Below, one piece after another: positions 2,221 to 51,146 of a DNA stretch of 64,000 bases. The stretch is from Anatilimnocola sp. NA78. GTDB taxonomy: Bacteria; Planctomycetota; Planctomycetia; Pirellulales; Pirellulaceae. Where the stretch lies: assembly GCF_049819085.1 (NCBI RefSeq), contig NZ_CP187419.1, forward strand, positions 5,021,518 to 5,085,517, read 5' to 3'. Every line of letters begins with the position of its first letter. Positions within the stretch are counted from its first letter, which is position 1. The notes beneath the pieces are model-generated. The model was not told the DNA's origin, did no database searches, and was given only the letters and a program-made list of their open reading frames with translations. A program made the translations under genes and the position numbers.

Positions 2221-3327
2221 TCACTCGCCGCCGTCGTTCCCGTCCTGGAAGCTCTTATAGTACTGTTCGATCAACTGCTGATAACGTCCGGGAAACTTCT
2301 CCTTGATGGCACTGTAAACGGGATCGCGATCCTTGTCGCGAAGTTGGCTCCAAGGGCTCTGCGGGCCGCCACGATGCAGTCGTTTGACGGCTTCGCCATC
2401 GGTTCCCTTGCTGCCGCCACCTTGAGTTCCACCTTGGCCCTGTCCTTGTCCTTGACCCTGGCCTTCTCCCTCACTCCCTTCGCCCTGTTGTTCGCCGGGC
2501 TTCTTCTGGCCTTCGCCTTTGCCCTTGCCTTGCGATTCTTTCTCTTCAGCGGCCTTGATCAGTTTGGCAAGCATATCGACGATGCGGTCTTGCTGGTCGC
2601 GAGTTTCTTTGCCGGTATCTTCCAACCCCAATTTACGCCGACTGTATTCCATCCGCAGTTGCACGTCCGACAAGGTTCCTTCTTCCACCAGCTTCAACTG
2701 TTCGATTTGACGGAAGGCAGCGACTCGCATTCGTTCGGGAGAGGCCGGATAGTCCTTCAAAAACTTCGTCAGCGATTCCATTGCCTCTTTGTGCTTCAGC
2801 AGTTGAATCTGCGCGACGCCTTGCAGGAACAGACTTTCGCCTTGATGCGTGGAATGGTTCACCGACTTGCCGCGCAACTGCTCAAGTAGTGGCATCGCTT
2901 CTTCAAAGCGTTCTCCAATCAAGTAACCTCGCGCCAGAAAATAAGCTGCATCGGTGGCGAGCCAGGTGTCGCTCGACTTGGTCAATTTTGCGAGTGCGGG
3001 GAGCGCACTACTGAGGTTTTCATCACCGAGGTCGGTTAAGGCTTGTTGATAGTCGGGACTCATCGCGCGCAGGGCTTCAGTCACCGCAACCGACTTCCCT
3101 TCAGGATCTGCCCGCAGCGAGAGCACCAACTGCTTGATCTGCTGCCGAGCTTCGTCCGGGAGTTCTTTGCGCTCGGCCAGTTCTTTGACAAAGCGATCGA
3201 GCACCTGATCGGTGGTATCAGCTGCGGAGGCAGACCAGACGAGGCCAAGGGTCAGCACGACACTTGTGAACCATCGAAGCGATTGCCGAACCATCGTGCG
3301 AACTCCTGTTTCCAATCCTGTCATCAA
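2221..3327 (-). CDS. Secreted TPR-like protein with low-complexity (GQ/GEG) tail
   Basis: ORF track 368 aa. Signal peptide (SVVLTLGLVWSASAAD), helical repeats, and a GEGSEGEGQGQGQGQGQGG low-complexity region. Confidence 0.5.
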   Translation of the reverse strand: MMTGLETGVRTMVRQSLRWFTSVVLTLGLVWSASAADTTDQVLDRFVKELAERKELPDEARQQIKQLVLSLRADPEGKSVAVTEALRAMSPDYQQALTDLGDENLSSALPALAKLTKSSDTWLATDAAYFLARGYLIGERFEEAMPLLEQLRGKSVNHSTHQGESLFLQGVAQIQLLKHKEAMESLTKFLKDYPASPERMRVAAFRQIEQLKLVEEGTLSDVQLRMEYSRRKLGLEDTGKETRDQQDRIVDMLAKLIKAAEEKESQGKGKGEGQKKPGEQQGEGSEGEGQGQGQGQGQGGTQGGGSKGTDGEAVKRLHRGGPQSPWSQLRDKDRDPVYSAIKEKFPGRYQQLIEQYYKSFQDGNDGGE

Positions 3328-3348
3328 ACCGAGCTGCGAACCGACTCA

Positions 3349-5727
3349 CTACTTACCGCTGCGTTCCAAAATGCGGATGGTCATTTCGCCGATATCCGAC
3401 TGCCGCTCCGAAACCTTGCGAACTTCACCCTTCAGCACGTCGTCGAATTCACCTTCTGCTGGACGAGCCGACTCGAGCGATTCCGTACGGCGATTCACAC
3501 GAAGCTGAGCAGCCCGCAGCAACTTCAGTTCGGCCGAGTTAGGCAGCAAAGGCTCGTTGCCTCCACCACCACCGCCGCCGCCACCCTCGCCGCCGTCTTT
3601 TTGCTTCTGGGCTTTTTGCAACGATTCGATTAGTTCTTCGAGCGTGATCTCAATTTCTCGCTGCATCGTTTGCGTGTAACCGTCCGTGCGGAGGTTATCC
3701 GAAAGGAGCGTACCGACCGTGATCAAATCGTCTCGCAGTTGTTCGACCACATCCGGAAAGACCACGCTGGTACCATCATCGAGAATGATCTCAAGCGCCT
3801 GCTGAGCTTTGAAGGCCAGCGGGATGCGGTCGGACTGCCCGTCTTGCTTGATGATGGCCAGGCCTCGTTCATCTTCACCGAGCGACTTCAGCGTATTGCG
3901 ATCGCTGCGGGCCAGGTTGCCCATGTTGTCGACTTTCTTTTTGTCGATGACGAGCGTGCGAGCCGAAAGGTCTTTCTGCACCGCCAGCATCTCACGGAAG
4001 CGAGCCTCCAACTTGGCGAGCTTTTCGACCTGGGTCTCTTCGCGCAACTGAGCGAGCCGCTCTTCAATTTCCTTCAAGGCATCTTCGAGATCTTTGATCG
4101 CCTTGCCTTGCTTGCGCGAGGCATCGGAAGGGTCTTGCTTGCGAAGATCGCCGGACGCCTGCTCCATCGACTTTTGAGCTTGTTGAACCTTTTGCTGGCC
4201 GGGCTTTGGCTTACCACCTTCGCCACCGCCCGATTCACCGCCACCAGGCTGGCCACCGCCAGGCTGACCGCCACCTTCCCCACCCTTTTTCTCGTCCTGC
4301 TTCATCTTCTCCTGAATCTTGCCGGTTTGATTGGCAATATCGTCTTGCTTGCCGGCCATCTTCTCAAATGCTTCGGGCGGCAAGGAGGCAATGCGTTGCG
4401 ATTCCTTCTTCAGCTCTCCCAAGGCTCGCTGGAGATTTTCGAGCGCGGTCTGCTCGTCTTGCTGGGCCGCTTTCCCTTTCCCTTCTTGCAGTTTGCCTTC
4501 GGCCTGCTTTTGATTTTCGATGGCTTGCTTTAGCGGGCGCTCGCCAGCTTCCGGTGGTCGTTGTGGCTGAACCCCCGGTTGTCCGCCTCCCGATTGACCT
4601 TCACCGGGCTTACCTTCACCGGGCTTACCTTCTCCGGGCTTACCTTCTCCGGGCTTACCTTCTCCGGGCTTACCTTCTCCGGGCTTACCTTCTCCAGGCT
4701 TACCTTCTCCAGGCTTACCTTCACCGGGCTTACCTTCACCGGGCTTACCTTCTCCAGGCTTACCTTCACCGGGCTTACCTTCACCGGGCTTACCTTCACC
4801 GGGCTTACCTTCACCGGGCTTACCTTCACCGGGCTTACCTTCACCGGGCTTACCTTCACCGGGCTTACCTTCACCGGGCTTACCTTCACCGGGCTTACCT
4901 TCACCGGGCTTACCTTCACCGGGCTTACCTTCACCGGGCTTACCTTCACCGGGCTTACCTTCGGCGTTTCCCTCTGCGGCCGGTTTGTCGCCGGCTTCTT
5001 TGCCGATCTGTTCAGCAACCGATTGAGTTCCTTCGCGGACCTTGGCTTGTTCGCTGGCAACTTTGCCCAGGCCTTGGATGCCGCTTTCGCGAGCCGTTTC
5101 GGTATTTCCGATAACTCCCTTTTGCTGCTCGATCAGGGCTTCGACCGCTTTGATCTTGGCTTCGAGCGATTTCAGCGTGTCATCTTTATTGGCGACGCGA
5201 TCGGCCTCTCGCTTTTCGCCCTTTTGCTGCTGAATGACTTCTTCGATCTGCTTCTTCCATTCGCTGAGCTTTTCGAACTCCTCACGAATCTTGTCCTTGT
5301 CGTTTTTCTCATCCAGCAACAGGGCGAGCAGGTCTTTCAGATCGCCGAGAATCTTTTGTTCTTCCGCTTTGGCCGGATCGAGTTGCTGCTGATCGAGCAT
5401 GCGGGTGATGAGGGCCATCCGCCCCTTGATGCCCAAGGCCTGAGACTGCTTCAGCGCGTCGGCCAGTTTCTGGGCTCGCTCGGGTTCCGCTTTGGCGAGT
5501 GCCTGAGCCAGTTGATTGAACTTCCGTTCCAGGTCCTCCACCATTCGCTCGACGTGAGCCTGCCGGACACCAAGTGGCGTCGTTTTAAAGCTGTCTGCTT
5601 CACTCGGCTTCGTCTGCCCGCTGGCCACTCCCGCAAGCAACAGGCCCGCCGCTAACGCCGCCGTCATGCCCAAGCGACACCCTCGCGCGGTGAGGCAATT
5701 CCACATGCGGGAAGTCAAACGATCCAT
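3349..5727 (-). CDS. Secreted coiled-coil protein carrying a (GEGKP)n pentapeptide repeat array plus poly-Gly/Gly-Gln tracts
   Basis: ORF track 3349..6078. The most plausible start is MDRLTSRMW... with a following signal-like [15 protein letters not shown] (codon arithmetic gives 5727). About 24 GEGKP repeats, long charged coiled-coil segments, and a [15 protein letters not shown] tract. Confidence 0.55.
4597..4965. repeat. Intragenic 15-bp tandem repeat (gggcttaccttcacc, ~24 copies; minor ttcacc/ttctcc variants)
   Basis: Read directly in sequence lines 4561-4980. Encodes (GEGKP)n on the minus strand. Alternate-frame ORFs (HRAYL..., GLTFT..., KVSPV...) are artefacts of this repeat. Confidence 0.9.
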
Positions 5728-6017
5728 GAGCCAATCCTCCGGGGCAGCCTGCGAACCGACGCGCACGTCGCGCGGGAATTGCCAGGCAGCAACGCAACCG
5801 CAACGAGCACTGGCGTGGTAACTGTCCCTTAGTCCAGTTGGGGGGCAGTTTGGTTCAATCCACTCCAATATGACGGGCGAAACAGGCAGCCGCAAAAGCA
5901 AATGGCCAAATTTTCGCAAATTGGTCGGCGGGCGACGCTGAAGTGGGTGGGGCGAGCATGCCCAGAAGATGGTGCGAACGGCCGCGAGCGAAGCCCAGCT
6001 TTCCAATCCGTCCCTTT

Positions 6018-6158
6018 TGTCCAAAAACCCTCGCGATTGTTGGACGGGTGACTTCCTGTGGCCGCGGCTGCAACTCATTGCTGCGTCGTGCCTTGCTGTC
6101 TATTCGGCACATTTCCAAACACGCCTATCTGTCCAACAACCCCCTCAGTTTTTGGACA
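6018..6158. promoter_or_regulatory. Two copies of inverted repeat TGTCCAA-N15-TTGGAC(G/A) (6018-6046 and 6130-6158) upstream of pyrB
   Basis: Seen in sequence. Identical half-sites and identical 15-nt spacing, 112 bp apart, 350-480 bp upstream of the pyrB start, in a 600-bp non-coding leader. Confidence 0.35.
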
Positions 6159-13698: not shown

Positions 13699-14466
13699 CT
13701 ACAGCCTCACCGGCACTCCGCGCCCAGCCATGATTTCTTTCGTTTGGCGAATGGTGAACTCGCCAAAGTGGAAGATGCTCGCAGCGAGGGCGGCATCGGC
13801 CCGACCGATGAGGATGGCATCGGCCAGGTGTTCCGGCTTACCGGCACCACCGCTGGCGACGACCGGAATCGTGACTGCGTCGCTTACCGCGCGGGTGATT
13901 TCCAGGTCGTAGCCATCCTTGGTTCCATCGCAGTCCATGCTAGTCAAAACGATCTCGCCGGCACCCAAGGCTTCCACTTCTTTGGCCCAAGCAACTGCTT
14001 CCAGGCCAGTGGGGGTTCGGCCGCCGTTGATGTGAACTTCCCACACCTCGCGGCCATCGCGTTGGACGCGTTTGGGGTCGATGTTGACCACGATGCACTG
14101 ATTGCCAAAGCGGCGGGCGGCTTCGCGGACGAAGTTCGGGTCTTTGCACGCAGCGGAATTGATCGAAACCTTGTCGCTACCGGCGTTGAGTAGAGCGCGA
14201 ATATCTTCGATGGTGCGGATGCCGCCGCCGACGGTCAGCGGCATGAAGACTTGTTCTGCCGTGCGACGTACCACATCGAGCATGATGCCCCGCTGTTCGT
14301 GGCTGGCGGTGATATCGAGAAAAACGAGCTCGTCAGCTCCTTCTTGCTCGTAGCGGCGAGCCACTTCGACGGGGTCACCCGCGTCGCGCAGCTGCAGGAA
14401 GTTCGTACCTTTCACGACCCGGCCTTGATTGACATCGAGACAGGGAATCACACGTTTTGCGAGCAT
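13699..14466 (-). CDS. hisF: Imidazole glycerol phosphate synthase cyclase subunit
   Basis: [20 protein letters not shown]...[13 protein letters not shown]...VASGGAG. Start placed at internal M50 of the ORF-track protein. Confidence 0.85.
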
Positions 14467-14685
14467 GCACGAATGGCCAATCAGGAGCGATAAGAGTTGC
14501 CGGCGACAAGCGTCACGGACCCACCATGCCCCGAGCGACTTCGCCCGCGGTGGCGTGCCAGCACTTGGCTGCCTTCCAAAACCTACTCTAAACGCTGGTG
14601 TGGCAAGGGTCAACGTAACGGGCGATTACATTGCGCACCGCCCACTGACGTGGGACGGCAACCGGCAGCCTAATTCCTGTACGTG

Positions 14686-15654
14686 CTAGTAATTGGGAGT
14701 CGGGGGGCGATAGTGCGAGAGGTCGATGTTGCGGAACCAGTCGATGGTCTTTTGCAGACCTTCGCGAAGTTTGATGGTGGGTTCCCAGTCGAGTTTCTCG
14801 CGAGCGAGGGAGATATCCGGGCGACGGCGGGTCGGGTCATCGGCAGGAAGATCTTCGTGGATGATCTTCGATTTTGAGCCCGTCAATTCGAGAACCATCT
14901 CGGCCAATTCTCGCACGGTAAACTCGTCCGGGTTGCCGAGATTCACGGGCCCAATGAACGAGTCGGGACCTTCCATCATCCGAATGATGCCGCTGATAAG
15001 ATCGTCGCGATAACAGAAAGAGCGAGTTTGCAGGCCGTTGCCAAACAGCGTGATGTCTTCGCCCTGCAGTGCCTGGCGGATGAAGTTCGAGACGACGCGG
15101 CCATCGAACGGGTGCATGCGCGGGCCGTAGGTGTTGAAGATTCGCACGATGCGAATGTTGATGCGGTTCACGCGGTGATAGTCCATGAACAGCGCTTCGG
15201 CGGCTCGCTTTCCTTCGTCGTAGCAAGCCCGGGGGCCGATGGGGTTCACGTTACCGCGATAGTCTTCTCGCTGGGGGTGAACCTCGGGGTCGCCATAGAC
15301 TTCGCTGGTCGAGGCTTGCAGCACCTTGGCGCGGCAGCGGCGCGCCATGCCGAGAACATTGATCGCCCCCATGACCGAAGTCTTGAGCGTCTTGATAGGA
15401 TTGAATTGATAATGACCGGGTGCGGCCGGGCAGGCGAGGTTGTAAATTTCGTCGACCTCGAGCCAAAACGGCAAGGTCACATCGTGGCGGATGAGGTCGA
15501 AGTTGGTTCGGCCAATCAGATGCGTAATATTGCTCTTCTGACTCGTGAAGAAGTTGTCGAGGCAGATCACGTCGTGCCCAAGTTCCACGAGCCGTTCGCA
15601 GAGATGTGACCCAAGAAACCCAGCGCCACCAGTGACGAGAATGCGTTTGATCAT
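14686..15654 (-). CDS. UDP-glucuronate decarboxylase (UDP-xylose synthase), NAD-dependent epimerase/dehydratase family
   Basis: [22 protein letters not shown] Rossmann motif, [11 protein letters not shown] catalytic YxxxK. ~322 aa. Confidence 0.8.
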
Positions 15655-18962: not shown

Positions 18963-19956
18963 AGCCTCATCCACCTTACAAAGATCGCCAGCTGCCAAGA
19001 AACGCACTCGTCGAGCCACGGGCAAACAGCCCAGAATCTCCCACGGGCAAACGACCATGATAGCGCCCGCAGGCTAAAGTTCGCAATGGGCGGCTGTGGT
19101 TGCTACGGTCCCGTTGGGAGCGACTAGCTGGGTCGCGCCATTAGCTCCGGGTGGCAGGCAACCAAGCCGTGACAGTCGGTTTGACCGCACTTCGCCCAGC
19201 CGCCAGCCCCGTCTTCGCTGGCTATGCCGGCAACTGCCGCCCCCCGGCAAATGCCTCGCTCAACCTGCGGGGGGGCGAAAGTCCAAGGTGGAGACCTTGC
19301 CTGCCAATCCACGTTGCTCTGATAACCATTTTTGATAACCTTTTCACGCATTTTTCTGTGATAACTATTTGCCGTAACTCTTAGCCCATCCGCCTGTTAT
19401 GCCAACCAATCCGCAAATCATGGCGATCCGCTGATAACCAATTGTTATCTTTGCCCAAGTTGCCCCAACCGCGCCAGCAAGTGGCCGGCACCGCCGGAGA
19501 TACTCACTCGTCGTTTCGCACCAACAGGCTTCTCCAGACCCACGCTGGGGATTGCCATCAACCTCCCGTGCATCGGAGTCGCACGAACCGCCCGGCAGCC
19601 GTCCCCCTGGCTCGTCACCTGCGCACAGCGAGCGCAGGCTCTTCTCAACGAAGAACATCTACGCATCACATAGACAATATTTGCTGTGCATTAATTTACT
19701 TCATTTTCTCGACATGACAATTCATTGTCAAGTGTTTTTCGCTTGCGCCGCCAGTCAACACAGCAGACGGCACGCAGAGACACCGATCTGGCGTATCGAA
19801 TCAGCGGCTGAAGCCGGGACGCTGCCTACGGCTGCCGCAAGCTGGCTGCTGGCTTTCAACTCCCCTCTGCGTAGGCTATTCTGGGGGCACAAACGATTGC
19901 CAATGAACATTTGCTATTGAACGAACGACGGCTAATTCCCGCTGGAGCCTGCCTCA

Positions 19957-37145: not shown

Positions 37146-37808
37146 CCGCCTGTTCCACACGTTTCGACTTACGTCGAATCGCAACGCCTTCGTGCAGAGT
37201 CGCCGCGCTTGCATCCCGCCAAGCCGCCCGATATAATCCCGACATTATCGCAATGTCGTTAGTTATTGTCAAGTGTTTATTATGGACCTCCTTGCACAAC
37301 AACCCCTGAACAGAATCGCATTACCCTGGCCCCTTCCTCTCTAGCCTCTAGCCCCGCTCCTCGCCAGATTCAATTCCAACAGTCGAGCCAGCAGTTCGTC
37401 GTCGGTGAGCGTGACGGGCCATCCGCAATCGGCCAAGATCAACTCTGCGGGCACGACTCACCGCGATTCCGCAATTGGATTGAGGAAACCCGAAGCGTGA
37501 GCGAGGAGCGCGCTGTGGAAGTCTTGAACTGAACTCCCCGGGGGTTCGTTTACAAATCGTTCGTGCGATGTTCGAGGGCAGAAACGAATGGTCTGGCCAC
37601 GACGACACTTCCGTGCGGCGAAGAGCACTCTCCTCGCTCACGCTTCGGGTTACCTGAACAGGCGAGCGTGACGCCCGTAGTCAAGTCGAACGAATTCCGC
37701 GGCCAGCTTGGTATGGCAACGACGAACTAGCATCCACCGCTGTTGTAAGGGGATGCTGTCGAAATTCAGCCTAACGAATCCCTCGCATTGCTTGAGGCGC
37801 ACGTCGCG

Positions 37809-41569: not shown

Positions 41570-42373
41570 ATGAAGAATCGCACAAACCACTTGGCCACCA
41601 TGCTGGTCGCATTTCTTCTCGGCTGGTCGTCGTCGACGATCGCTGCAGATGCCGTTCCACTGCCGGCCAAGGAGAAGTTTCATCTCTTCCTGCTTGTGGG
41701 GCAGTCAAACATGGCGGGTCGCGGCAAGGTCGAAGCCGAAGACAAGCAGCCCGCGCCTCGCGTGTTGATGCTCAACAAAGAGGGCGACTGGGTCCCCGCC
41801 GTCGATCCACTTCACTTCGACAAGTCGGCCGCTGGTGTCGGCCTCGGCAAGACTTTTGGCAAGTTGATTGCCGAAGCAAATCCGGACGTCACCATCGGCC
41901 TGATTCCCTGTGCCGTCGGCGGCTCGCCCATCGACTCGTGGAAGCCGGGAGTTCTCTACAAGCCAACCAACAGCCATCCCTGGGACGATGCCATCCGTCG
42001 TGCCAAGCTGGCGCAAGAGAAGGGCGTGCTCAAGGGTATGCTCTGGCACCAAGGCGAGTCCGATTGCTCCGCCAAGGCTGCTCCTGCCTATGCTGAAAAA
42101 CTACAGTCGCTCGTGGCTGCCTTTCGTAAAGAGCTGAATGCTGACGTGCCGTTTCTCGTGGGTCAGCTTGGTCAGTTCGACGAGGTTCCTTGGGACGACA
42201 ACCGCAAGCTGGTCGACCAGGCCCATCGCGAGCTTCCCAAGCACGTCACCAACAGCGCCTTCGTTCCCTCCGACGGCCTGAAGCACAAAGGGGACAAAGT
42301 CCACTTCGACTCCGCCGGCCTGCGCGAGTTCGGCAAGCGGTACGCCGAGGCCTACCTCAAGCTTGCCAAGTAA
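41570..42373 (+). CDS. Sialate-O-acetylesterase-like (SASA/DUF303) carbohydrate esterase
   Basis: Signal peptide; GQSNMAGRG catalytic-Ser motif; 267 aa. Confidence 0.7.
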   Translation: MKNRTNHLATMLVAFLLGWSSSTIAADAVPLPAKEKFHLFLLVGQSNMAGRGKVEAEDKQPAPRVLMLNKEGDWVPAVDPLHFDKSAAGVGLGKTFGKLIAEANPDVTIGLIPCAVGGSPIDSWKPGVLYKPTNSHPWDDAIRRAKLAQEKGVLKGMLWHQGESDCSAKAAPAYAEKLQSLVAAFRKELNADVPFLVGQLGQFDEVPWDDNRKLVDQAHRELPKHVTNSAFVPSDGLKHKGDKVHFDSAGLREFGKRYAEAYLKLAK

Positions 42374-42439
42374 GCCGGCAACAAGCGGTACTCGGCGATG
42401 TCCCGGCGCTTCGACCAACTGCCGGCCCTGCCCCGCCGG

Positions 42440-42960
42440 GTTTCCCCTCCGCTGAACAGTCCTCCGCATCCCTCTCGGCATTCCATTTTTGATAACTTTT
42501 TGCGCGAAAAATCGAAACCAACGCCTCGCTCTAACCCGTTCTGCTCCAAACTATTGCGATCACAACCGACCCAAAATCACCCGTTTCCTGATAACCATTT
42601 GATAACCACTCCTGCCCCTGTTCACTCCGCAGCCTGAACAGGCCCTAAACAGGGGGTCCAGTCTTCGTGGCGGCAGACCTCCTGGTCTGCCTTCCCCCGG
42701 CCTCTCCATTCTCTTCTGACGTCGCGGCAATCCTCCCGAACTTGCCTCGCTGAACAGTCCCTGTTCAGCGCTTCTGACAGCCCGTCTTGATAACTTTTTG
42801 CGCGAAAAATCGCATCCGCTTCCTCGCCCTAACCAGTTCTGCTTCAAGCCATTGCAATCAGAACCTCCCCAAAATCACCCGTTTCCCGATAACCGTTTGA
42901 TAACCACTCCTGCCCCCTGTGCGCTCCCTAGCCTGAACAGGCCCTAAACGGGTGGCTCAG
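42440..42960. repeat. Two tandem ~298-bp non-coding repeats, each with a TGAACAG/CTGTTCA hairpin, a TTGATAACTTTTTGCGCGAAAAATCG box and a CTGATAACC-N4-GATAACC box
   Basis: Period of 298 bp measured from gctgaacag (42451 / 42749) and ttgataac (42489 / 42787). ~85% identity between copies. Confidence 0.85.
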
Positions 42961-43251
42961 ACTGCCCCTCCTCGGTTAACCGAGCCGCTTGCGGCCGTTG
43001 AACTGGCAATCAAGTCAGTCCACACTTCTCCCGCGCAACCGCGTGGGTTAACCAAATACTGGGGCAGTAGGTCCAGGAACTCCGTACCTGACGACCTCGC
43101 TGAGTTGCAGTCAGGCGCGCGACGCTGGCCTTGCCCGACTCCGCCACTCGCTCCCATAAACCTTAAAATGTCCTTGACACTAAGTCAACAAATTGTAACA
43201 ATAATTCGGTGTGACACCGTCCGGCCAAAGTGCCCGGACCGCTCAACTCCG

Positions 43252-43722
43252 CTACTGAAGATCCCGAACAGAACTTTCGAAGCAATTGAGTTCAGCCTCA
43301 ATCACATCCCAAAATGAAGTCCCGCAAATGCTGAATGCGCCTCTTCCCTCGAAGTAGAAGTAGATTGGAAGCTCAACAAGAGGAGTGCCAGTTTCAAAAA
43401 ACATAAACTGTTCCCCCTGTCTCATTGCAAATACAAAAGCATTGTTGGGAATGGGCAACTTGCCATCTTCCCAGTTTGCCACCATCTCCTTCGCACGACT
43501 TTGCAATTCGACGAGCTGTTTGACTCGAAAATCGACATCGTCCCAAAAAGCTCCCGCGCTGTGCCCCACGGCCTTCAAGAACGAGCGGTAGTCTTCCGGC
43601 AAGGCAACCCCAAGCGTGGTTTCCAGCGAAGCTATCTCTACCTCGAATGCGCCGCAAATGGGTTGATGTTTCGCCAACCCGGCGGCAACAATTCGGTCAA
43701 CTAGCTTTCTCGAAGTGAGCAT
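43252..43722 (-). CDS. SUKH-1 (SMI1/KNR4) family immunity-type protein
   Basis: LPEDYRSFLKAVGHSAGAFWDD matches the SMI1/KNR4 core. Start placed at MLTSRK. The ORF-track N-terminal extension is read-through into the upstream repeat. Confidence 0.6.
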   Translation of the reverse strand: MLTSRKLVDRIVAAGLAKHQPICGAFEVEIASLETTLGVALPEDYRSFLKAVGHSAGAFWDDVDFRVKQLVELQSRAKEMVANWEDGKLPIPNNAFVFAMRQGEQFMFFETGTPLVELPIYFYFEGRGAFSICGTSFWDVIEAELNCFESSVRDLQ

Positions 43723-43786
43723 TGAACTCTTTCCAAACGCACTTTCTCTCGCTCGATGGTGCAGCAGCTTTTCGTAACTAAGTCCC

Positions 43787-43969
43787 CGCCAGGTGCCACT
43801 GGCTCGGCCAGTGCAGATTGGCCATCGCCGGGTTGCCTCCCAGCAGAAGAGAACCTCTTGCCTTTTTGCACAGGACAACCTCTTGGCAAAATGGCAAATC
43901 TCCAGCCGCCTTCGATCCAGCTACCCATTCGAGCCGGTCATTCACTGGCGAAGCCAGTGGCACCCGGCG
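43787..43969. repeat. MITE/attC-like 183-bp palindromic element, copy A (17-bp terminal inverted repeats CGCCAGGTGCCACTGGC / GCCAGTGGCACCCGGCG)
   Basis: Three >90% identical copies (A, B, C). Each sits 6-60 bp beyond the stop of a minus-strand gene. Confidence 0.8.
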
Positions 43970-44029
43970 CACGACCACGTCTCAAATCACAGGGACCGCG
44001 ACGCCCGCCCGGTCCGCTCCAATGGCTGG

Positions 44030-44524
44030 TTATGTGCCGGCCGACTGCCGCCACACCGGTTTGGCCGCACACCGCAAATCGACGCCGCGCCACTTCAACA
44101 GAGCGTAGAGAGCGCGGTCAATTAGCAACCTATCCGCCCAGATTGCGATCGAGCCCACCAAGGTCTGACCGTCGAGCGGATCGGCATAGACGACGACCTG
44201 AATCCGCCAGTCTTTGTAAACATCTATCAACAGCGCCCGCAGCTCATCGAGGAATGCCTGTGAAAAGCTGTCGATCGACGCCTCCAGATGCCGCGTGTGA
44301 TCCGGCCACCAGTCCCAGCCGATTTCCAGATGCTTCTCCACGTAGCTGGGCTCATACAAGCGATCCGCCACCGCCACGATTCGCTTGCGAAGCTCCTCGT
44401 CCCTCCGCACGTAATCCGCCTCTGCCTGTTCGCCTTTGAACTTCGCGATCCGCGCAGAGGCTTTGAACAGATCGTCAAAGACATCATCTTTCGCGGCTAT
44501 CGTGACCTCGCGGACGTCATTCAC
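44030..44524 (-). CDS. Hypothetical cassette protein (GTG start); last ~8 codons share nucleotide homology with the 3' end of the gene at 48145
   Basis: 164-aa acidic cytoplasmic protein. Its start abuts the duplicated recombinase-5' segment. Confidence 0.45.
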   Translation of the reverse strand: MNDVREVTIAAKDDVFDDLFKASARIAKFKGEQAEADYVRRDEELRKRIVAVADRLYEPSYVEKHLEIGWDWWPDHTRHLEASIDSFSQAFLDELRALLIDVYKDWRIQVVVYADPLDGQTLVGSIAIWADRLLIDRALYALLKWRGVDLRCAAKPVWRQSAGT

Positions 44525-44654
44525 AAGCGGCTCGCCTCCGGCAAATAACTTCTTATTCTACAGAATCGCCACGAGGCTTGATTCTTGATAACAGGAGTTT
44601 TATTCTGTCGAACGGGAAATAGATGTCAATCATTTCCTTCAGAATCTTCCAAGC

Positions 44655-44801
44655 TTGCGACGGAGCGGGAGGTGTTCGGTGGCCACAGAAACGACTCCAG
44701 TCAAGCCCGGCCCGAAGCTGTTGGAGCGAATGCGTCACAAGTTACGCGCCAAGCATTTGGCATTGAGCACCGAACGGAGTTACCTGCATTGGGCCGAGCG
44801 G
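44655..44801 (+). pseudogene. 5' fragment (first ~49 codons) of an integron-integrase-like tyrosine recombinase, copy 1, interrupted by repeat element X
   Basis: KLLERMRHKLRAKHLALSTERSYLHWAER matches the IntI/Xer N-terminal SAM-like domain motif (R.[22 protein letters not shown]). The reading frame then diverges into the inserted repeat. Confidence 0.6.
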
Positions 44802-45023
44802 CGGGTGGCATGGGTTCTACCCATGTCCTCCTTGGTCTTCTGAGGTAAGGATCCTCGCCAGCCGAGGCAAAACTCAACTCGATTTCACCAGCAACTGCAG
44901 TCCTGCGTTACCCCAGAACAGTTTGAGCTCCACCAAAACTGGCACTCGACGTCACACGAGAATTGCCAGCAGACATGGGTAAAACCCATGCCACCCAGAG
45001 ATGGCGAATGACCACGCATGCCA
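44801..45023. repeat. Second repeat family (element X, ~220 bp) with terminal inverted repeats GGTGGCATGGGTTnTACCCATG / CATGGGTAAAACCCATGCCACC, copy 1
   Basis: Near-identical copy at 46276-46499. Confidence 0.75.
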
Positions 45024-45029
45024 ACACCG

Positions 45030-45212
45030 CGCCAGGTGCCACTGGCTCGGCCAGTGCAGATTGGCTCTCGCTGGGTTGCCTCCCAGCGGAAGAGAACCTC
45101 TTGCCTCTTTGCACAGGGCAACGTCTTGGCAAAATGGCAAATCTCCAGCCGCCTTCGATCCAGCTACCCATTCGAGCCGGTCAGGCACTGGCGAAGCCAG
45201 TGGCACCCGGCG
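45030..45212. repeat. MITE/attC-like 183-bp element, copy B
   Basis: Same termini as copy A. 13 bp beyond the stop of the LRR gene. Confidence 0.8.
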
Positions 45213-45225
45213 TTGTAACCCATGC

Positions 45226-45981
45226 TCATTCCGCAATCAAAAAATCATTCTCCAATTGCCAGTCGCCATTAGAAGTGTGAACCACCTCTAATTCTGGGCG
45301 CAGCTGCCGCAGGCGATCAACACACGTTGATGATACGAGGGACCCGGAGAGATCCACTCGTCTCAATCGAGTCGATGCAATCAGTTTCTCGATTATAGCA
45401 TCTGACACCTGAGTTAACGACACATCAAAGGAATGCAGGATCGGCAATCTTAAGAGACAAAGTGCGACATTATCATCCATTTTAGTCCGCGAACAGTCAA
45501 GCTCCTCTATGCCAGAAAAAATACTTACAAGTTCCCTTGCGAAATCAACGTCAACTTGTTCTCGCGAAAGTGCAATCCTTCGCACATTTCTCCAGCCTCT
45601 CATCGATTCGACAGCTGAAGGCGGCAGTTCTTTTAAAAATATATATTGAGCTGACGTAGATCTTGGCATCATCGCGTTGCACGCTCCGCCTTTGCAGTCC
45701 ACGATCACCGTCCTCAGCGAGCGCAACTCCTCAATTGCCCGAAAGTCGCTCATTGCTCCGCAGTCAATCCTGGCAAGTGCAGGATGAGCGGTGGGCAGCC
45801 CAATCCATGAGGGAAATTCAAGTGAAGATTGCTCATAGAGTTCGAGGCTGCATCCATTTTCCTTGAGCTCCCGCTCAGCTGACAGCAAGTCACGATGAAA
45901 TCTCAGTCGCTCGCTGATACAAAAGGCTACAAGAGCTGCGACAACCATCAAGAGCAATAATGCGCGGATCGAGAATGTCAT
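45226..45981 (-). CDS. Leucine-rich-repeat (RNI-like) membrane-anchored protein; low-GC, likely horizontally acquired
   Basis: Start at MTFSIRALLLLMVVAALVAFC (TM), then L-rich repeats. The DNA of 45.3-46.1 kb is visibly AT-richer than its surroundings. Confidence 0.5.
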   Translation of the reverse strand: MTFSIRALLLLMVVAALVAFCISERLRFHRDLLSAERELKENGCSLELYEQSSLEFPSWIGLPTAHPALARIDCGAMSDFRAIEELRSLRTVIVDCKGGACNAMMPRSTSAQYIFLKELPPSAVESMRGWRNVRRIALSREQVDVDFARELVSIFSGIEELDCSRTKMDDNVALCLLRLPILHSFDVSLTQVSDAIIEKLIASTRLRRVDLSGSLVSSTCVDRLRQLRPELEVVHTSNGDWQLENDFLIAE

Positions 45982-46275
45982 TTTTAGTCTACTTAACGGA
46001 GATTCGCGCTGGTGTATATTGGCCAGTGTGCTTTTTGTAGTGACAGCCCGTTTGCCGATTGCGCCTGTTTGACTCATCCTAGCTAAACCCCCAGCTATCC
46101 TGAGAATTCCATTGCGCAAATCTGTTTACTATAGTAATGTTGTCTAAGTGCCCTTGACTAATCCCCACAGGCCGCAACACTTGGTGCATAGGATCACTTG
46201 AGTAGGTTTGATCTCCGTTGGCGTCCGATATTGTGATGCTTTGTAAAATCAAGTGCGAGCCGAACCAAAATCCTG

Positions 46276-46499
46276 CGGCGGGTGGCATGGGTTGTACCCA
46301 TGTTCTTCTTGGTCTTCTGAGGTAAGGATCCTTGCCAGCCAAGGCAAAACTCAACTCGATTTCACCAGCAACTGCAGCGCGGCGTTACCTCAGAACGGTT
46401 TGAGCTCCACCAAAACTGGCACGCGACGGTCCGCGAGAGTTGCCAGCAAACATGGGTAAAACCCATGCCACCCAGAGATGGCGAATGACCACGCATGCC
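46276..46499. repeat. Element X, copy 2
   Basis: Same TIRs as copy 1. 32 bp beyond the stop of the 46532 gene. Confidence 0.75.
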
Positions 46500-46531
46500 A
46501 CCCCGCCGCCGCAGTCAGGTGCAACTGATTG

Positions 46532-47206
46532 TTATCCCGCCTTTTCAATGCGTGCTTTTACCCATTCAACAAACGTGGCCGGATCCATGTTACCCGCAAC
46601 ACGGAACTCACAAGGCTCCTCGGAGTCCCAGTGAGCTTCGGGCGTCGGAAATTCGCCTTGTCTGTCTTCGCCCCAATACATCGTCGTCTCTTCGTAGTCA
46701 TTGATCCTGAAAGCCGAACCTTTATTGCCTTCAAAGATGTACATCCCCGACACCTTGAATTCGTCGGCTATGCCCGGTTGACCAAAAGCACGAACGAGCG
46801 AGCGAGGGCTGACATGCAACATGGTCCCGAACCCATTCAAATCCTTCGTGGTGTCGGAGACAAGATCAAATGTACTGCTGTCGTCAGCGGGCGCAACGAC
46901 CGGCTCTTGTTTCTTACGAAAACCGGGTTTGCCCCTGAAAAACTCATGTTTGCTCACCCAGACGATCTGGCCGAAAACATCGTACTCTTCACCGTCAAGT
47001 TGAAAAGAGCCAATGGTGTTGATTCGACCTTCCGTTTGACTGCTGAACGTGAGCTTCAGATTCGTTGCATCTGCGGGCATGTTGTTCACAAACGCCGTGG
47101 AAGCGAACTGCATGAAGTCGGCAAAACTTGGCGGAGTAGTTTTGCGCCAACATGACTTGTAGGATTCGACGTCAATCAACGCTTCAAGTTGTTCTTTGAC
47201 GGTCAT
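46532..47206 (-). CDS. Hypothetical cassette protein (224 aa, acidic)
   Basis: ATG start 12 nt from the second copy of the recombinase-5' segment. No recognisable domain. Confidence 0.45.
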   Translation of the reverse strand: MTVKEQLEALIDVESYKSCWRKTTPPSFADFMQFASTAFVNNMPADATNLKLTFSSQTEGRINTIGSFQLDGEEYDVFGQIVWVSKHEFFRGKPGFRKKQEPVVAPADDSSTFDLVSDTTKDLNGFGTMLHVSPRSLVRAFGQPGIADEFKVSGMYIFEGNKGSAFRINDYEETTMYWGEDRQGEFPTPEAHWDSEEPCEFRVAGNMDPATFVEWVKARIEKAG

Positions 47207-47328
47207 GTCTTTAGCGGGATAACTTCTTATTCTACAGAATCGCCACGAGGCTTGATTCTTGATAACAGGAGTTTTATTCTGTCGAACGGGAAATAGAAGT
47301 CAATCATTTCCTTCAGAATCTTCCAAGC

Positions 47329-47484
47329 TTGCGACGGAGCGGGAGGTGTTCGGTGGCTACAGAAACGACTCCAGTCAAGCCCGGCCCGAAGCTCTTGGAG
47401 CGAATGCGTGACAAGTTGCGTGCCAAGCATTTGGCATTGAGCACCGAACGGAGTTACCTGCATTGGGCCGAGCGGTTCATACGC
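47329..47484 (+). pseudogene. 5' fragment of integron-integrase-like tyrosine recombinase, copy 2, truncated exactly at the left end of MITE-like copy C
   Basis: ...LRAKHLALSTERSYLHWAERFIR then the frame enters cgccaggtgccactggc. 258 bp (47219-47477) is ~97% identical to 44545-44800. Confidence 0.6.
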
Positions 47485-47664
47485 CAGGTGCCACTGGCTC
47501 GGCCAGTGCAGATTGGCCATCGCCGGGTTGCCTCCCAGCAGAAGTGAACCTCTTGCCTTTTTGCACAGGGCAACATCTTGGCAAAATGGCAAATCTCCAG
47601 CCGCCTTCGATCCCACTACCCATTCGAGCCGGTCAGGCACTGGCGAAGCCAGTGGCAACCGGCG
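47482..47664. repeat. MITE/attC-like 183-bp element, copy C
   Basis: Same termini as copies A and B. Ends 30 bp beyond the stop of the gene at 47695. Confidence 0.8.
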
Positions 47665-47694
47665 CCCCTGTCGATAGGGAAGGCCATAGAGAGG

Positions 47695-48060
47695 TTAGGC
47701 CGACTTCCTTTGCAACCACTCCTGATACTGTCTCCAATCATCGTCAATCGCCGCTTGCTGCACGGTTTCTGAAACATCGCCAAATTCAATCTCGCGCATG
47801 TATCTCGGATATTCCGCCTCCGCAAGGACATCTCGGTAGTCTTGGATCGCGGTCTGCGTTTCGTCCAGAAGTCGAGCAAGATCACCGTTTACGAGCTTGA
47901 GGATGGCGAGTCGCACGCGCGGGTTGGGGCGATTCCAATCCTGCTTTCCGAACTCTTCGAGAATCGAAAGCGCCAGTGCAGCCTGAGCATCGCCAAAGTC
48001 GCGGAGCGCGATCCTCTTTACGTCTTCGTAAGTCACATCTGGGATGGGTTGTTCCGCCAT
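47695..48060 (-). CDS. Hypothetical small cassette protein (121 aa)
   Basis: Acidic, helical, no known domain. Immunity-protein-like context. Confidence 0.4.
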   Translation of the reverse strand: MAEQPIPDVTYEDVKRIALRDFGDAQAALALSILEEFGKQDWNRPNPRVRLAILKLVNGDLARLLDETQTAIQDYRDVLAEAEYPRYMREIEFGDVSETVQQAAIDDDWRQYQEWLQRKSA

Positions 48061-48144
48061 AAGCGTGTCGGCCTAACGACCAAGTTCACCTGCTGCGGCG
48101 GCGGTGAGACGTTGAACTCTGAAAAAGCCGTAATGCCGCCGCAG

Positions 48145-48669
48145 TCAGGTGCAACGGCTGGTTATGGCCGGCCGGTTGCCGTCGAACTCCACATGGAAGC
48201 CTACCGGTAGAAGCCAATACGGAGCGAATCGCGCGTCATGAATCGTCAGCTCGTACAGCGACTGAAAATGCAAGTTCGCGGGTTCATTCACATCCAAGGG
48301 ATCGTCGGCGACTCCAACGAACCAACCCGATTTGTTGCCTTCAAGCTGATCGAGTCGCTCCATGAATGCACGCGGCGACCCCGGCATGTAAGACCTGCTG
48401 ATGAGCGCCGCATGCCACAGCGCACAGCGCTCCGGCTCAACCCGCTGTTTGGCCAACACAGCCGACTGTTCCGCGTCGATACGTTCCACTGGCCCGAAAT
48501 CTCGAGTGAACGACGCCATGGCCAGGAAATCAAGTGTCTCCAAGTCCAATTGGCCGTTCTCGACGATGGCCTGAAAGATGAACCAGCCGTACTCGACTGA
48601 CTCGCCGTGCTTAACGGTGCGCGTGGAGAGGAAGTCGAGGACATTCGATCGTAGAGCACTTGAGGCCAT
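48145..48669 (-). CDS. Hypothetical cassette protein (174 aa)
   Basis: Its 3' end shares the ggctggttatgGccggccgGTtgcc segment with the 3' end of the 44030 gene. A hairpin, cacctgctgcggcggcgg ... ccgccgcagtcaggtg, lies 3' of its stop. Confidence 0.4.
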   Translation of the reverse strand: MASSALRSNVLDFLSTRTVKHGESVEYGWFIFQAIVENGQLDLETLDFLAMASFTRDFGPVERIDAEQSAVLAKQRVEPERCALWHAALISRSYMPGSPRAFMERLDQLEGNKSGWFVGVADDPLDVNEPANLHFQSLYELTIHDARFAPYWLLPVGFHVEFDGNRPAITSRCT

Positions 48670-48922
48670 AACTACTTATAATCTTGCGCGGCGGTCATGT
48701 TAACCTAAGCCGCGATCAAGGGATCGAATCCGATCTATCTGAAGTAGGTTAAGTGGGTTACGCTCCGAATGTCAACTGATAAGCAAACCAGCAATTCTTG
48801 CGCAGCGTGAGTCCAACTAAAAGGCTGCTGCTGAGGTTGGGGAAAAGTTCCGGACCGGTTGCTTACGGGGTGCGAGAACAACCGGATTGAGAGCGTGAGG
48901 AAAATGACCGAGCAAATTGGGG

Positions 48923-49405
48923 CTAAGCGATCGATTGGTCAGCAAGTGCAACGGCGGGCCGTGGGGCCAAGACGAGCCGCATGAACACTTTGTCCAGGCC
49001 CGGCTGATACCCGTCGACGATCACCCGAAACGCCTCGAAGTCGAACCGGGCGAAAAACGGAGCGGTGTGCTGACTCGTGTCGATCAAAACGCACCACGCA
49101 TGGGTAATCTGCCGAATTTGCTCGAGCCGCCACTGGAGCAGGCTCGCCCCTACTCCCCGTCGGTGCCAGTTCGCGCGGACCATGCCCCATTCCAGGTAAC
49201 CCACCCCATAGTCATCGACACGAAACCCACCGCACCCGCGGACCTCCCCCGCGATCTCAGCGACGAAGAAAGGCTGATCCCGCCGCCGCAGGTAGGCCGC
49301 GAAGAGATCTCGCTCAGGCGCGGTGAAATACTTCGGCCGGTTGCTGTCGAAGATTTCCAAGCAGGCCGACTCGTCGTCTTGTCGGTACTCACGAATGTCT
49401 CCCAA
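48923..49405 (-). CDS. GNAT-family N-acetyltransferase
   Basis: RGVGASLLQWRL acetyl-CoA binding motif; 160 aa. Confidence 0.7.
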   Translation of the reverse strand: MGDIREYRQDDESACLEIFDSNRPKYFTAPERDLFAAYLRRRDQPFFVAEIAGEVRGCGGFRVDDYGVGYLEWGMVRANWHRRGVGASLLQWRLEQIRQITHAWCVLIDTSQHTAPFFARFDFEAFRVIVDGYQPGLDKVFMRLVLAPRPAVALADQSIA

Positions 49406-49547
49406 GAGCGACCTCCGCTGCTGAACGGATCAATGTTCAATGGCCAACACCGCGCCGACAAACTCCGACTTTACCAAAACGCTCAACGCCAAGTGCCGCT
49501 GGCTCGGCTGGCGAAGCCACTGGCATAGCGCAAGATCTGTTCGCGAC

Positions 49548-50843
49548 CTACTTCCCCGCGACGTCGTAACAGAAGATCAACTCCTGATCGCGCAAAAACA
49601 GTTTGCTGTTGGCAACGACCGGCGGCGTCCAGATTTTGCCGCTCGGTTTGCGCAGCTTCGATTGCTCGGGAATGCGGAACGTCGCGACGATGTTAGGAGC
49701 CGTCGGATTGGCCTCGACGACCGCCAGGGTGCCATCACCTTCGGCGTACGTAAAAAGTTGGCCATCGGCATAAGTGACGGAACCAGCCCGCAGCTTCGCG
49801 CGCTCGGTCCAGGCGATTTCGCCCGATTCGAGTGACTGGCACAGCCAGCCGCGGCCACCAGCGCCATAGATGTGTTCGCCGACGAGCACCACATTGCCGT
49901 GATGATTGGCCAGGTTGCGGTTCGTGTACACTTCCTCCGCAGCGAACTTGCCGTCGCTCGGTTTGATCCGCAGCAACGTACAACCATGCGCGCCACCGAC
50001 GGTCACATAGACAAGCGAGCCGCGCACGATGGGACTATTGACGACTTCGGTCCCGTACTTGGTTTCCCACATCCACAACAGCGAGCCATCTTGAGCACTC
50101 ACCCCAAACACGCCCTGATTCGTGAGCACCACATATTGTCGCTGGCCGTTCACTTCGGCAAGCATCGGCGACGCATACGCTGCCTGCTGAGTGACTTCTT
50201 TGCTGCGCCATAGCACTTCGCCGGTCTTTTTATTCAAAGCAGCGACGGTTCCTTGTGGTCCGCCAGGCAGACAGACCAGTTGATCCCCGTCGACGAGCGG
50301 CGACCAGGTGAATCCCCAGCCCAGCTTCTTGGGGCCACCACCAATGGGATTCACTTCGGCGGCCAGATCGGCGGGGAGATTCTTTTTCCAAACCACTTTG
50401 CCATCTGCTTTGCCGACACAGACCAGGTCGCCATTGCCACCCAGCGCGAAGATCAAGTCGCCATCGACCGTGGGTGTGGCACTGGGCCCCGCGCTCCAGT
50501 TGTTCCCTTTGAAGTCGAACAGCGGACCAATTTCGGTGGCCCACGCTTCTCTCACGTTGCCATCGACAAAGCTGCTGGTATCGAGCGCAATCAGGTACTC
50601 TTTGCCGTCACGGGCACCCATCGTGTAGAGCCTGTCGCCAACGATCGCTGGTCCCGAGTAGCCAATGCCCGCATTGCGGTAAGTCCACAGGAGCTTGGGG
50701 CCTTCCTTCGGCCAGTCTTTCAACAGTCCTTTTTCTGCCGAGACGTCGTCACGGTTCGGCCCGCGATACTGCGGCCAATCGTCGGCAACCGCCACCAGTG
50801 GGAGCGCGCAGCAAAGGGCGAGAGTGAGCGAAGAGGCGTTCAT
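49548..50843 (-). CDS. PQQ-repeat beta-propeller protein (BamB-like fold), secreted
   Basis: Start at MNASSLTLALCCALPLVAVADDWPQYRG. Repeated PQQ-type blades. Confidence 0.7.
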   Translation of the reverse strand: MNASSLTLALCCALPLVAVADDWPQYRGPNRDDVSAEKGLLKDWPKEGPKLLWTYRNAGIGYSGPAIVGDRLYTMGARDGKEYLIALDTSSFVDGNVREAWATEIGPLFDFKGNNWSAGPSATPTVDGDLIFALGGNGDLVCVGKADGKVVWKKNLPADLAAEVNPIGGGPKKLGWGFTWSPLVDGDQLVCLPGGPQGTVAALNKKTGEVLWRSKEVTQQAAYASPMLAEVNGQRQYVVLTNQGVFGVSAQDGSLLWMWETKYGTEVVNSPIVRGSLVYVTVGGAHGCTLLRIKPSDGKFAAEEVYTNRNLANHHGNVVLVGEHIYGAGGRGWLCQSLESGEIAWTERAKLRAGSVTYADGQLFTYAEGDGTLAVVEANPTAPNIVATFRIPEQSKLRKPSGKIWTPPVVANSKLFLRDQELIFCYDVAGK

Positions 50844-51146
50844 GCGTACCTCGGGGGAAGTCGTGTGGGAGGGAGGAACAACGACGGCGGGTTTGACGAG
50901 CAGTAGACTACACCTCGCCTCCAGCAATTGCCATCGTTACGTTTCGCTTGATTTGCCGCCCCCTGATTTGACGCCCGCAACGGGGGTGGGTATCGTGACA
51001 GGTTCCTACCGGGTGGGTTGTGCTGGGCGATCGGCACGTAGCGAAGCAAGGGCGAAAGTTGCTTCCACCACCTTGCCAGTTGAATGATGGCTGGTTGTCG
51101 TTTGTCGACGGTCCTGCTGACCGCTGTTTCACTTTGGAGTTTCGTT

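Follow-up and report, generated by a model that had tools for sequence, protein, structure and literature searches.

Two similar non-coding repeat units, with cores of about 215 and 216 nt, lie on the + strand at 42450-42664 and 42748-42963 of a 64-kb stretch of the Anatilimnocola sp. NA78 chromosome (the whole of this stretch is called here the window, and L-numbers designate the genome or metagenome loci compared with it). On the evidence of sequence comparison, and with a probability that we put at about one half, we propose that these units are copies of a multi-copy, lineage-restricted non-coding module that would act at the DNA level, as a putative protein-docking array carried in a portable promoter-like cassette.

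The repeats sit between two convergent genes, coding for a SASA-family esterase (41570-42373, +) and a SUKH immunity-type protein (43252-43878, −), where an earlier note, made from the letters of this DNA, had placed them. The esterase, like FloA, encoded elsewhere in the window, shows 100% identity to a protein of NA78. The two similar units that it had reported at 42440-42960 are indeed present: the cores are 81% identical in a global alignment, and a repeat search of the window paired 42489-42618 with 42787-42916 (87% identity, offset 298 nt) and 42615-42664 with 42914-42963 (82% identity). All the three blocks quoted in that note occur exactly twice in the window, with 0 occurrences expected by chance. 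Its description of a tandem 298-bp repeat holds for the offset, but not for a strict head-to-tail order, as an 83-nt spacer (42665-42747), with no equivalent 3' of unit 2, intervenes between the units; the pair was not reported by Tandem Repeats Finder.

The conserved part of each unit is a module of about 135-150 nt, organised as an array of 8-bp boxes, (T)GATAACC. In an alignment of 26 members, the boxes of the downstream pair, B1-B2, are spaced 10-12 nt and the distance from A2 to B1 is 99-102 nt, both in 26/26 members, while the upstream pair, A1-A2, is spaced 11-13 nt, with an A1 that is often degenerate and is seen in many members. The invariant columns are A2 TTGATAAC, B1 GATAACC, B2 TGATAAC (followed by an additional 3' C in 25 of the 26), a central TAA(C) and the TT inside ACTTGCG; the mean column identity of the alignment is 59%, and the conservation between the boxes, judged by eye, is about 40-60%. 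An inverted GGTTATC precedes B1 by 18-19 nt in around one third of the members. In unit 1, box A2 (42489-42496, +), part of an exact 26-mer match, is followed by TTTTTGCGCGAAAAA at 42497-42511, and the pair B1-B2, TGATAACC ATT TGATAACC, occupies 42589-42607 (+), with the direct repeats 11 nt apart and 99 nt after A2. In unit 2 the same elements are found at 42787-42794 (A2, +), 42795-42809 (TTTTTGCGCGAAAAA) and 42887-42905 (B1-B2, CGATAACC GTT TGATAACC, +). The box pair claimed for both units exists in both, but the first box of unit 2 reads CGATAACC and not CTGATAACC. Invariant direct repeats one helical turn apart, with a spacer constant in length and free in sequence, are the conservation pattern of protein-DNA assemblies and not of RNA. 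Among the three options offered by the earlier note, an array for a GATAAC-recognising protein is the best fit to these invariant boxes, fixed spacing and free intervening sequence.

To collect the family, we used the pattern TTGATAAC-N85-100-GATAACC-N-GATAACC, which requires intact boxes and permits an A2-to-B1 distance of 91-106 nt. In 185,579 species genomes it gave 9 matches, 2 of which in Pirellulaceae (L005 and L006, the latter a metagenome-assembled genome (MAG) of Anatilimnocola); in metagenomes it gave 53 stretches, 21 of which, with 54-60% G+C and coming mostly from one sample (Ga0138256), align full-length to the window units. Low-GC satellites or coding repeats account for the other pattern matches. 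A sequence-only model, R1, was built from the 26-member alignment (A3), in which all three window copies are included: it scored 24 loci, the window and 23 family loci, at 40-84 bits, and every other pattern match at 20 bits or less. R1 also generalises, since it recognised two matches outside its training alignment, L058 428-559 (43.9 bits) and L025 1256-1401 (35.3 bits). In the window only three segments scored, all on the + strand: 42475-42618 (69.8 bits) and 42774-42917 (67.1 bits), in units 1 and 2, and a third, diverged copy at 19319-19449 (58.9 bits), about 500 nt upstream of floA. The latter has boxes at 19320, 19333, 19359 and 19432, an inverted GTTATC at 19444, and TTGATAAC followed by TGATAACC, with the same A2-to-B1 distance, 99 nt, as units 1 and 2. 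All three copies show TTGATAAC, GATAACC 99-102 nt on, TGATAACC 10-12 nt further and a high R1 score, as the family does. A fourth degenerate module, suspected by eye at 36.9 kb, reached just 3.4-4 bits and is not claimed. The known carriers are therefore Anatilimnocola sp. NA78, two Pirellulaceae MAGs and metagenome contigs of similar G+C. A BLAST of 42440-43260, with settings for distant similarity, against 72,556 plasmids and 50,697 phages gave chance matches of 31-45 nt alone, and the six matches of the pattern scan in viral contigs scored 17 bits or less, or were unscored, with no family member among them.

Units 1 and 2 are mutually closest (81% identity, against only 72-73% to L060 and L044), and form a subfamily with these two loci. 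The two-unit layout of the window is a family habit, as L058 has a second module 275 nt downstream, and in L060 a partial upstream unit is followed by the GGCAGACCTCCTGGTCTGCC spacer hairpin, identical to that of the window. A different arrangement was observed in L025 (1256-2000), in which two complete modules, at a distance of about 460 nt, are oriented towards each other in a nearly symmetrical non-coding structure of about 750 nt, each with its own promoter-like block and with the 17-bp palindromes of these blocks about 25 nt apart at the centre.

In 13 metagenome loci, a block CTACCAAAWTGYCAAAGA ... ATTGTAC ... GTGACTAGTYWGGTCAC, which corresponds to a −35/−10-like pair and then a 17-bp palindrome, is present 3' of the module, 162-439 nt downstream of B2 and, in 7 of the 13, at 207-210 nt. 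In the window, the homology with L044 and L060 continues beyond the module, through GTAGGTCCAGGAACTCCGTACCTGAC to TTGACAnnAAGTCAACA-N-nAnnAT, and TTGACA-17-nAnnAT is common to the three. The window site, a sigma-70-like TTGACA-17-AACAAT overlapping the palindrome TTGAC-N5-GTCAA (43174-43202, +), is located about 270 nt after unit 2, is the sole sigma-70-like match in 42200-43400 and is directed into the 3' end of the SUKH gene. It is separated from unit 2 by a single-copy non-coding stretch (42964-43173, +), containing an inverted repeat (42974-42993 / 43034-43053) and the block GTAGGTCCAGGAACTCCGTACCTGAC at 43067-43092; the sequence is conserved with L060 from 43067 onward. By inspection, both a sigma-54 and a sigma-70 promoter within the module itself were ruled out.

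The cassette of about 0.45-0.8 kb formed by module, spacer and promoter-like element is, to judge by its distribution, a portable piece of intergenic DNA, because its gene contexts are unrelated and it is absent at the orthologous sites of sister species. The genes beside 20 modules are mutually unrelated (rRNA methyltransferase-like, pseudopilin, CPBP protease and beta-propeller protein genes are among them), and a regulon reading was rejected because these neighbours are functionally unrelated. The floA-SGL synteny is retained in four relatives, whose floA upstream regions contain no module and zero TGATAAC. The homology between the window and L074 stops at window position 19091 and appears to resume near 19853-19875, just ahead of the conserved floA promoter (alignment read by eye), which suggests that the window would have about 720-760 additional non-coding nt upstream of floA, with the module inside. 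The interval between the esterase and the ThuA-domain gene measures 8.7 kb in the window (42374-51083) versus 1.7 kb in Anatilimnocola aggregata (L069 10814-12490), where the syntenic interval has no module; this interval is a variable hotspot. In NA78 it contains the repeats, SUKH, Imm33, further low-GC3 open reading frames (ORFs) and a PQQ beta-propeller gene; in A. aggregata, a SnoaL gene, a 113-aa ORF and a long palindromic repeat. The region right of the repeats, at about 43.2-47.9 kb, has a low GC3 and holds the Imm33-like gene. Since the module is missing at the orthologous sites of sister species, the cassette is a gain of the NA78 lineage, abundant in few genomes only. Of the refuting observation named in the earlier note, a unit confined to this place and not conserved in relatives, one half applies: many copies are found elsewhere, but the sister-species sites do lack it.

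As for a possible mechanism, a sequence-specific protein would occupy the boxes of each pair in head-to-tail order, at an interval of one helical turn, and the fixed spacer of about 100 bp would let both bound pairs build one defined nucleoprotein complex; the complex would most likely control the promoter-like element downstream of the module. Several points weigh against this interpretation. The binding of the boxes by a protein is a prediction from the sequence, and the sigma-70 calls are consensus matches only. The invariance of the boxes is partly built in, as the scan pattern required them intact; this does not apply to the narrowness of the spacing or to the separation of the family at 40-84 bits. 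The orientation of the modules toward the flanking genes is not fixed, every orientation being seen, and in the window the promoter-like site aims at the 3' end of the convergent SUKH gene, an odd arrangement if the module regulates a gene. Moreover, the facing units of L025 are more in keeping with the paired ends of an element than with a promoter cassette. Outside the boxes, the copies of one metagenome share, as judged by eye, only about 40-60% of their sequence, which gives no sign of recent mobility, and no clear termini or target-site duplications were seen by inspection at the floA insertion. More speculatively, and with the odds rather against it, the module might be the cis-element of a planctomycete-specific system, in which a dedicated binder would sit on a fixed-geometry array and the promoter-carrying non-coding cassette would propagate itself.

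Besides the boxes, the units and the spacer between them contain several inverted repeats. The repeat CCTGTTCA-N10-TGAACAGG follows B2 of unit 1 (42617-42642, +), its right arm being part of the conserved AGCCTGAACAGGCCCTAAAC block; in the unit 2 equivalent (42916-42941) the pairing is down to 5 bp, and the same arms, with other loops, occur also in L044, L060 and L027. The spacer hairpin GGCAGACC-TCCT-GGTCTGCC (42672-42691, +) is the one found identical in L060, between the partial upstream unit and the full unit. The earlier note had assigned a GCTGAACAG/CTGTTCAGC hairpin to both units; it is complete in unit 2 alone, which starts with the perfect hairpin CGCTGAACAG-TCC-CTGTTCAGCG (42748-42770, +), whereas unit 1 has the left arm only (42450-42459). 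TGAACAG motifs, single or as hairpins, flank the module and are common around family members; the window has two occurrences of the module with such flanks. The sequence CTGAACAG has 8 occurrences in the window, a number which argues against a high-copy repetitive extragenic palindromic (REP) element. A coding role of the units was discarded, since the overlapping ORFs (42398-42637, +; 42560-42847, −; 42952-43317, +) have no Pfam match and the family alignments contain 1-2-nt indels; a tRNA/tmRNA scan gave none.

Other explanations of the same data have to be considered. The boxes could be arm-type or transposase-binding sites located where a mobile or integrative element ends, like the Mu L1/L2-L3 sites, the Tn7 TnsB sites and the P-arm sites of lambda attP; the units would then mark the left junction of the immunity-gene island at 43-48 kb, and tandem copies would arise by repeated insertion. 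Multiple direct sites with a gap of about 100 bp, followed by short inverted repeats, orthologous sites without module in relatives, the border with a low-GC3 variable region lacking in A. aggregata, and the facing pair of L025, resembling a cargo-less mini-element, are all in line with this. We consider it unlikely, however, as an inverted partner exists for only 1 of about 30 modules and the window's three have all the same direction, no copy has a transposase or a complete integrase beside it, the 19.3-kb copy came with non-coding DNA only, no conserved termini or target duplications were found, and the copies are old and diverged. Examined as miniature inverted-repeat transposable elements or transposon ends, for which terminal inverted repeats, a target-site duplication and near-identical copies are typical, the modules have no inverted partner in the window and a single inverted pair, in L025, with a real presence/absence polymorphism versus the relatives. 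Another explanation, which appears to us rather improbable, is that of an iteron-, centromere- or chromosome-organising array, on which an initiator, a ParR/ParB-like protein or a nucleoid protein would assemble, with an effect on the structure of the chromosome instead of on a promoter nearby. It would account for the 11-bp repeats with a second locus about 90-100 bp off, like the pMV158 origin, and for a context independent of the neighbour genes. It would also suit the distribution of TGATAAC, which occurs in the window 14 times versus 2.6 expected, 14/14 on the + strand and with five sites outside the modules, and of which the 146 kb compared in seven related loci have no copy (L069-L075; 5.2 expected, P ~0.006). 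In addition, the module strand is C-rich in 18/24 loci (p = 0.02), but this bias is not significant for contigs of at least 4 kb. Three copies in 64 kb and dozens in a single metagenome are too many for an origin or a centromere, plasmids and phages are without similar sequence, and the absence of the modules in sister species would be odd for a core chromosome function. Plasmid or phage iterons and a replication origin were rejected on the same grounds, namely three chromosomal copies in 64 kb and no relative in plasmids or phages.

The units might also be small-RNA genes in tandem, or an RNA repeat with some other structure, with transcription running across the conserved blocks; the earlier note had suggested a structured RNA repeat and called the units structured, a term that their folding does not support. 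Their position between convergent genes is one often seen for stand-alone small-RNA genes, tandem diverged small-RNA pairs exist in other bacteria, local hairpins are present at 42617-42642, 42672-42691 and 42748-42770, and the folding of unit 2 has z = −2.0. By contrast, unit 1 folds no better than shuffled sequence (z = −0.05), the predicted folds of the two units are unlike and the hairpins are not common to both. RNAalifold on 26 homologues gave 0 pairs on the + strand and, on the −, a trivial stem of 6 invariant pairs (−1 kcal/mol), with no covariation; Rfam gave no match at E ≤ 10 in 42300-43300, none at gathering score in the whole window, and nothing in 20 family loci except an unrelated RNase P in L033. 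What is conserved, i.e., short direct-repeat boxes and the length of a spacer, is unlike the conservation of RNA stems, and we regard the RNA explanation as quite improbable. Even less can be said for a local duplication of intergenic DNA without any function: the mutual closeness of units 1 and 2 is in its favour, but further copies of the module, their boxes invariant and their spacing fixed, exist at 19.3 kb and in 23 other loci, and L060 has the tandem layout too, spacer hairpin included. This explanation, very improbable, is refuted for the module as such, even if the duplication event itself may have been neutral. Finally, we give hardly any credence to an integron attI site, or a degenerate attC array, serving the adjacent cassette island. 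It is true that the boxes read GTTATC on the opposite strand, reminiscent of the IntI-binding GTTA sites, that GCCCTAAAC resembles what we take to be the attI1 sequence, GCCCTAAAAC, and that two truncated IntI-like N-termini are present in the island (44655-44843 and 47329-47547). Nevertheless, the window, in which the earlier note had suggested an attI-like site, is without a complete integron integrase and has only these two N-terminal fragments, 1.7 and 4.4 kb off. A tblastn search of the window and of all loci, with what we take to be the IntI1 sequence, gave only 47359-47535 (residues 3-63), with an integrase in 0/23 other family loci, and Pfam Phage_int_SAM_4 covers 33-45 of 85 N-terminal-domain positions, with no catalytic domain found. 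The 19.3-kb copy has no adjacent cassettes and, by inspection, the direction of the boxes with respect to the core-like block is opposite to that of attI1. An attI site is disfavoured also because there is no neighbouring divergent complete intI and, by inspection, no GTTRRRY after GCCCTAAAC. An attC site measures 57-141 nt and forms an imperfect palindrome, whose boxes are R''/L'' and L'/R' (RYYYAAC ... GTTRRRY); the sole perfect palindrome here is the 23-nt one at 42748-42770, too short for attC, with GCTGAAC and GTTCAGC carrying one mismatch each, and unit 1 lacks its right arm. This also affects how the immunity-gene island next to the repeats is to be understood, as they are not an integron attachment site.

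Known box types were also compared. The DnaA boxes are 9-mers, TGTGNAWAA / TTWTNCACA: by inspection, the module boxes match 6-7 of the 9 positions, without TGTG, and their conservation extends 3' (ACC), so that a DnaA-box cluster was discarded. The 7-1-7 operator of the Fur family (TGATAAT-n-ATTATCA) was discarded because the boxes are mainly direct and the spacing of the inverted ones varies, being 1, 2 and 5 nt next to a direct box and 11-12 nt in the case of the inverted box that precedes B1, and a reading as integration host factor (IHF) sites only was ruled out on box sequence and spacing. Two unrelated pattern matches with 46-48% G+C, L011 (Ga0209297_1000022) and L047 (Ga0209299_1000051), look like chromosomal replication origins, with TGTGGATAA / TTATCCACA DnaA boxes interleaved with repeated CCTGTTGATAACCC.

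A number of further observations were made on the window and the compared loci. Within the immunity-gene island, 44548-44800 and 47222-47475 are two copies, about 97% identical, of a stretch of about 250 nt, each with the first ~50 codons of a gene resembling those of integron integrases (KLLERMR.KLRAKHLALSTERSYLHWAER), preceded by an upstream region in which TTGATTCTTGATAACAGGAG lies. They correspond to positions 1-33 or 1-45 of the 85 of Pfam Phage_int_SAM_4, after which the catalytic domain was not found; they punctuate the island, with the look of cassette boundaries. Another candidate repeated element of these genomes is the perfect inverted repeat of 22 nt AACCCGAAGCGTGAGCGAGGAG / CTCCTCGCTCACGCTTCGGGTT (37477-37498 / 37631-37652), the arms of which are separated by about 130 nt; the near-identical GGAAACCCGAAGCGTTAGCGAGGAG follows the palindrome block in the metagenome locus L028 (~2300). 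The 14-mer ATTGTCAAGTGTTT, alone not significant in 64 kb, is present in two AT-rich intergenic patches (19714-19727 and 37259-37272) and is similar to two other sequences, namely the metagenome family's block AAATTGTCAAAGA and, at 43192, AAATTGTAAC. At 4597-4962, inside the minus-strand ORF 3349-6078, a 15-nt unit, ACCTTCACCGGGCTT, is repeated 24.4 times with 97% identity, and is presumably pentapeptide-repeat coding. Among the compared loci, L033 has a bacterial class A RNase P RNA (2995-3438, +; 282 bits) 1.7 kb from the module, and L072 a Y1 (IS200/RAYT-type) transposase gene (14305-14901, −) 3.3 kb downstream of floA.

To our knowledge, almost nothing is known of transcription control, repeated elements and chromosome organisation in Planctomycetes. 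An invariant 8-bp box, with fixed spacings and dozens of natural variants, offers a testable handle for finding a new DNA-binding protein. If the planctomycete-specific system outlined above were real, it would represent portable regulatory elements of a class new to bacteria or, as TGATAAC is biased to one strand in NA78 and avoided in relatives, a polar signal of chromosome architecture. Portable regulatory DNA in bacteria would have a clear example in the cassette, if this has a promoter of its own and spreads from one intergenic region to another. In the literature searched, whose coverage was incomplete, no description of the planctomycete motif TGATAAC / TTGATAACC / GATAACC was found. 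Modular repeated extragenic elements with protein-binding cores are a known kind, while that literature describes neither this module nor its geometry, nor the association with a promoter-like block.

Winged-helix response regulators and plasmid initiators bind head-to-tail sites one helical turn apart, and the Pho boxes of OmpR/PhoB-type regulators are short direct repeats of this type. The module is similar to such operators in its head-to-tail boxes 10-12 nt apart, in having several pairs and in the promoter-like site downstream; it differs in being an array of about 150 nt recurring dozens of times, with a fixed inner spacer of about 100 nt, located 160-290 nt from the promoter-like site and with no constant relation to protein-coding genes. 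For ToxR, TTTTGAT heptad repeats are described in the ctxAB promoter (bioRxiv 10.1101/2021.05.14.444153), and box A2 contains TTTTGAT. The double-strand origin of pMV158, with the RepB nic and bind loci, has three 11-bp repeats, which make up a high-affinity locus, 84 bp from the nick locus (PMC1851628); the module shares the tandem direct repeats of about 11 bp and a second locus at a fixed distance, which in pMV158 carries a hairpin (PMC1851628), but the plasmid origin is single-copy and beside rep, whereas the modules are chromosomal, multi-copy and without a Rep gene. With the arm sites of lambda attP and the DR1/DR2 sites of integron attI, the module has in common the direct accessory sites tens of bp from short inverted repeats and the position at the edge of a variable island; unlike them, it has no integrase partner and no common core with a 6-8-bp overlap, its hairpin loops vary from 3 to 12 nt and most copies border no island. 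In the BIME-1/RIB elements of E. coli, REP hairpins flank an IHF site, and the pneumococcal BOX elements are modular and multi-copy. The module resembles both as a modular, multi-copy intergenic element with a variable number of modules, with TGAACAG/CTGTTCA hairpins flanking a putative protein-binding core, and the opposite strand of B1-B2 (TATCAA-ACGG-TTA) fits what we take to be the IHF core consensus, WATCAANNNNTTR. Its copies, however, are far more diverged outside the boxes than those of BIME and BOX, its boxes are much stricter than IHF sites and, compared with REP, it is 5-10 times longer and coupled to a promoter-like element.

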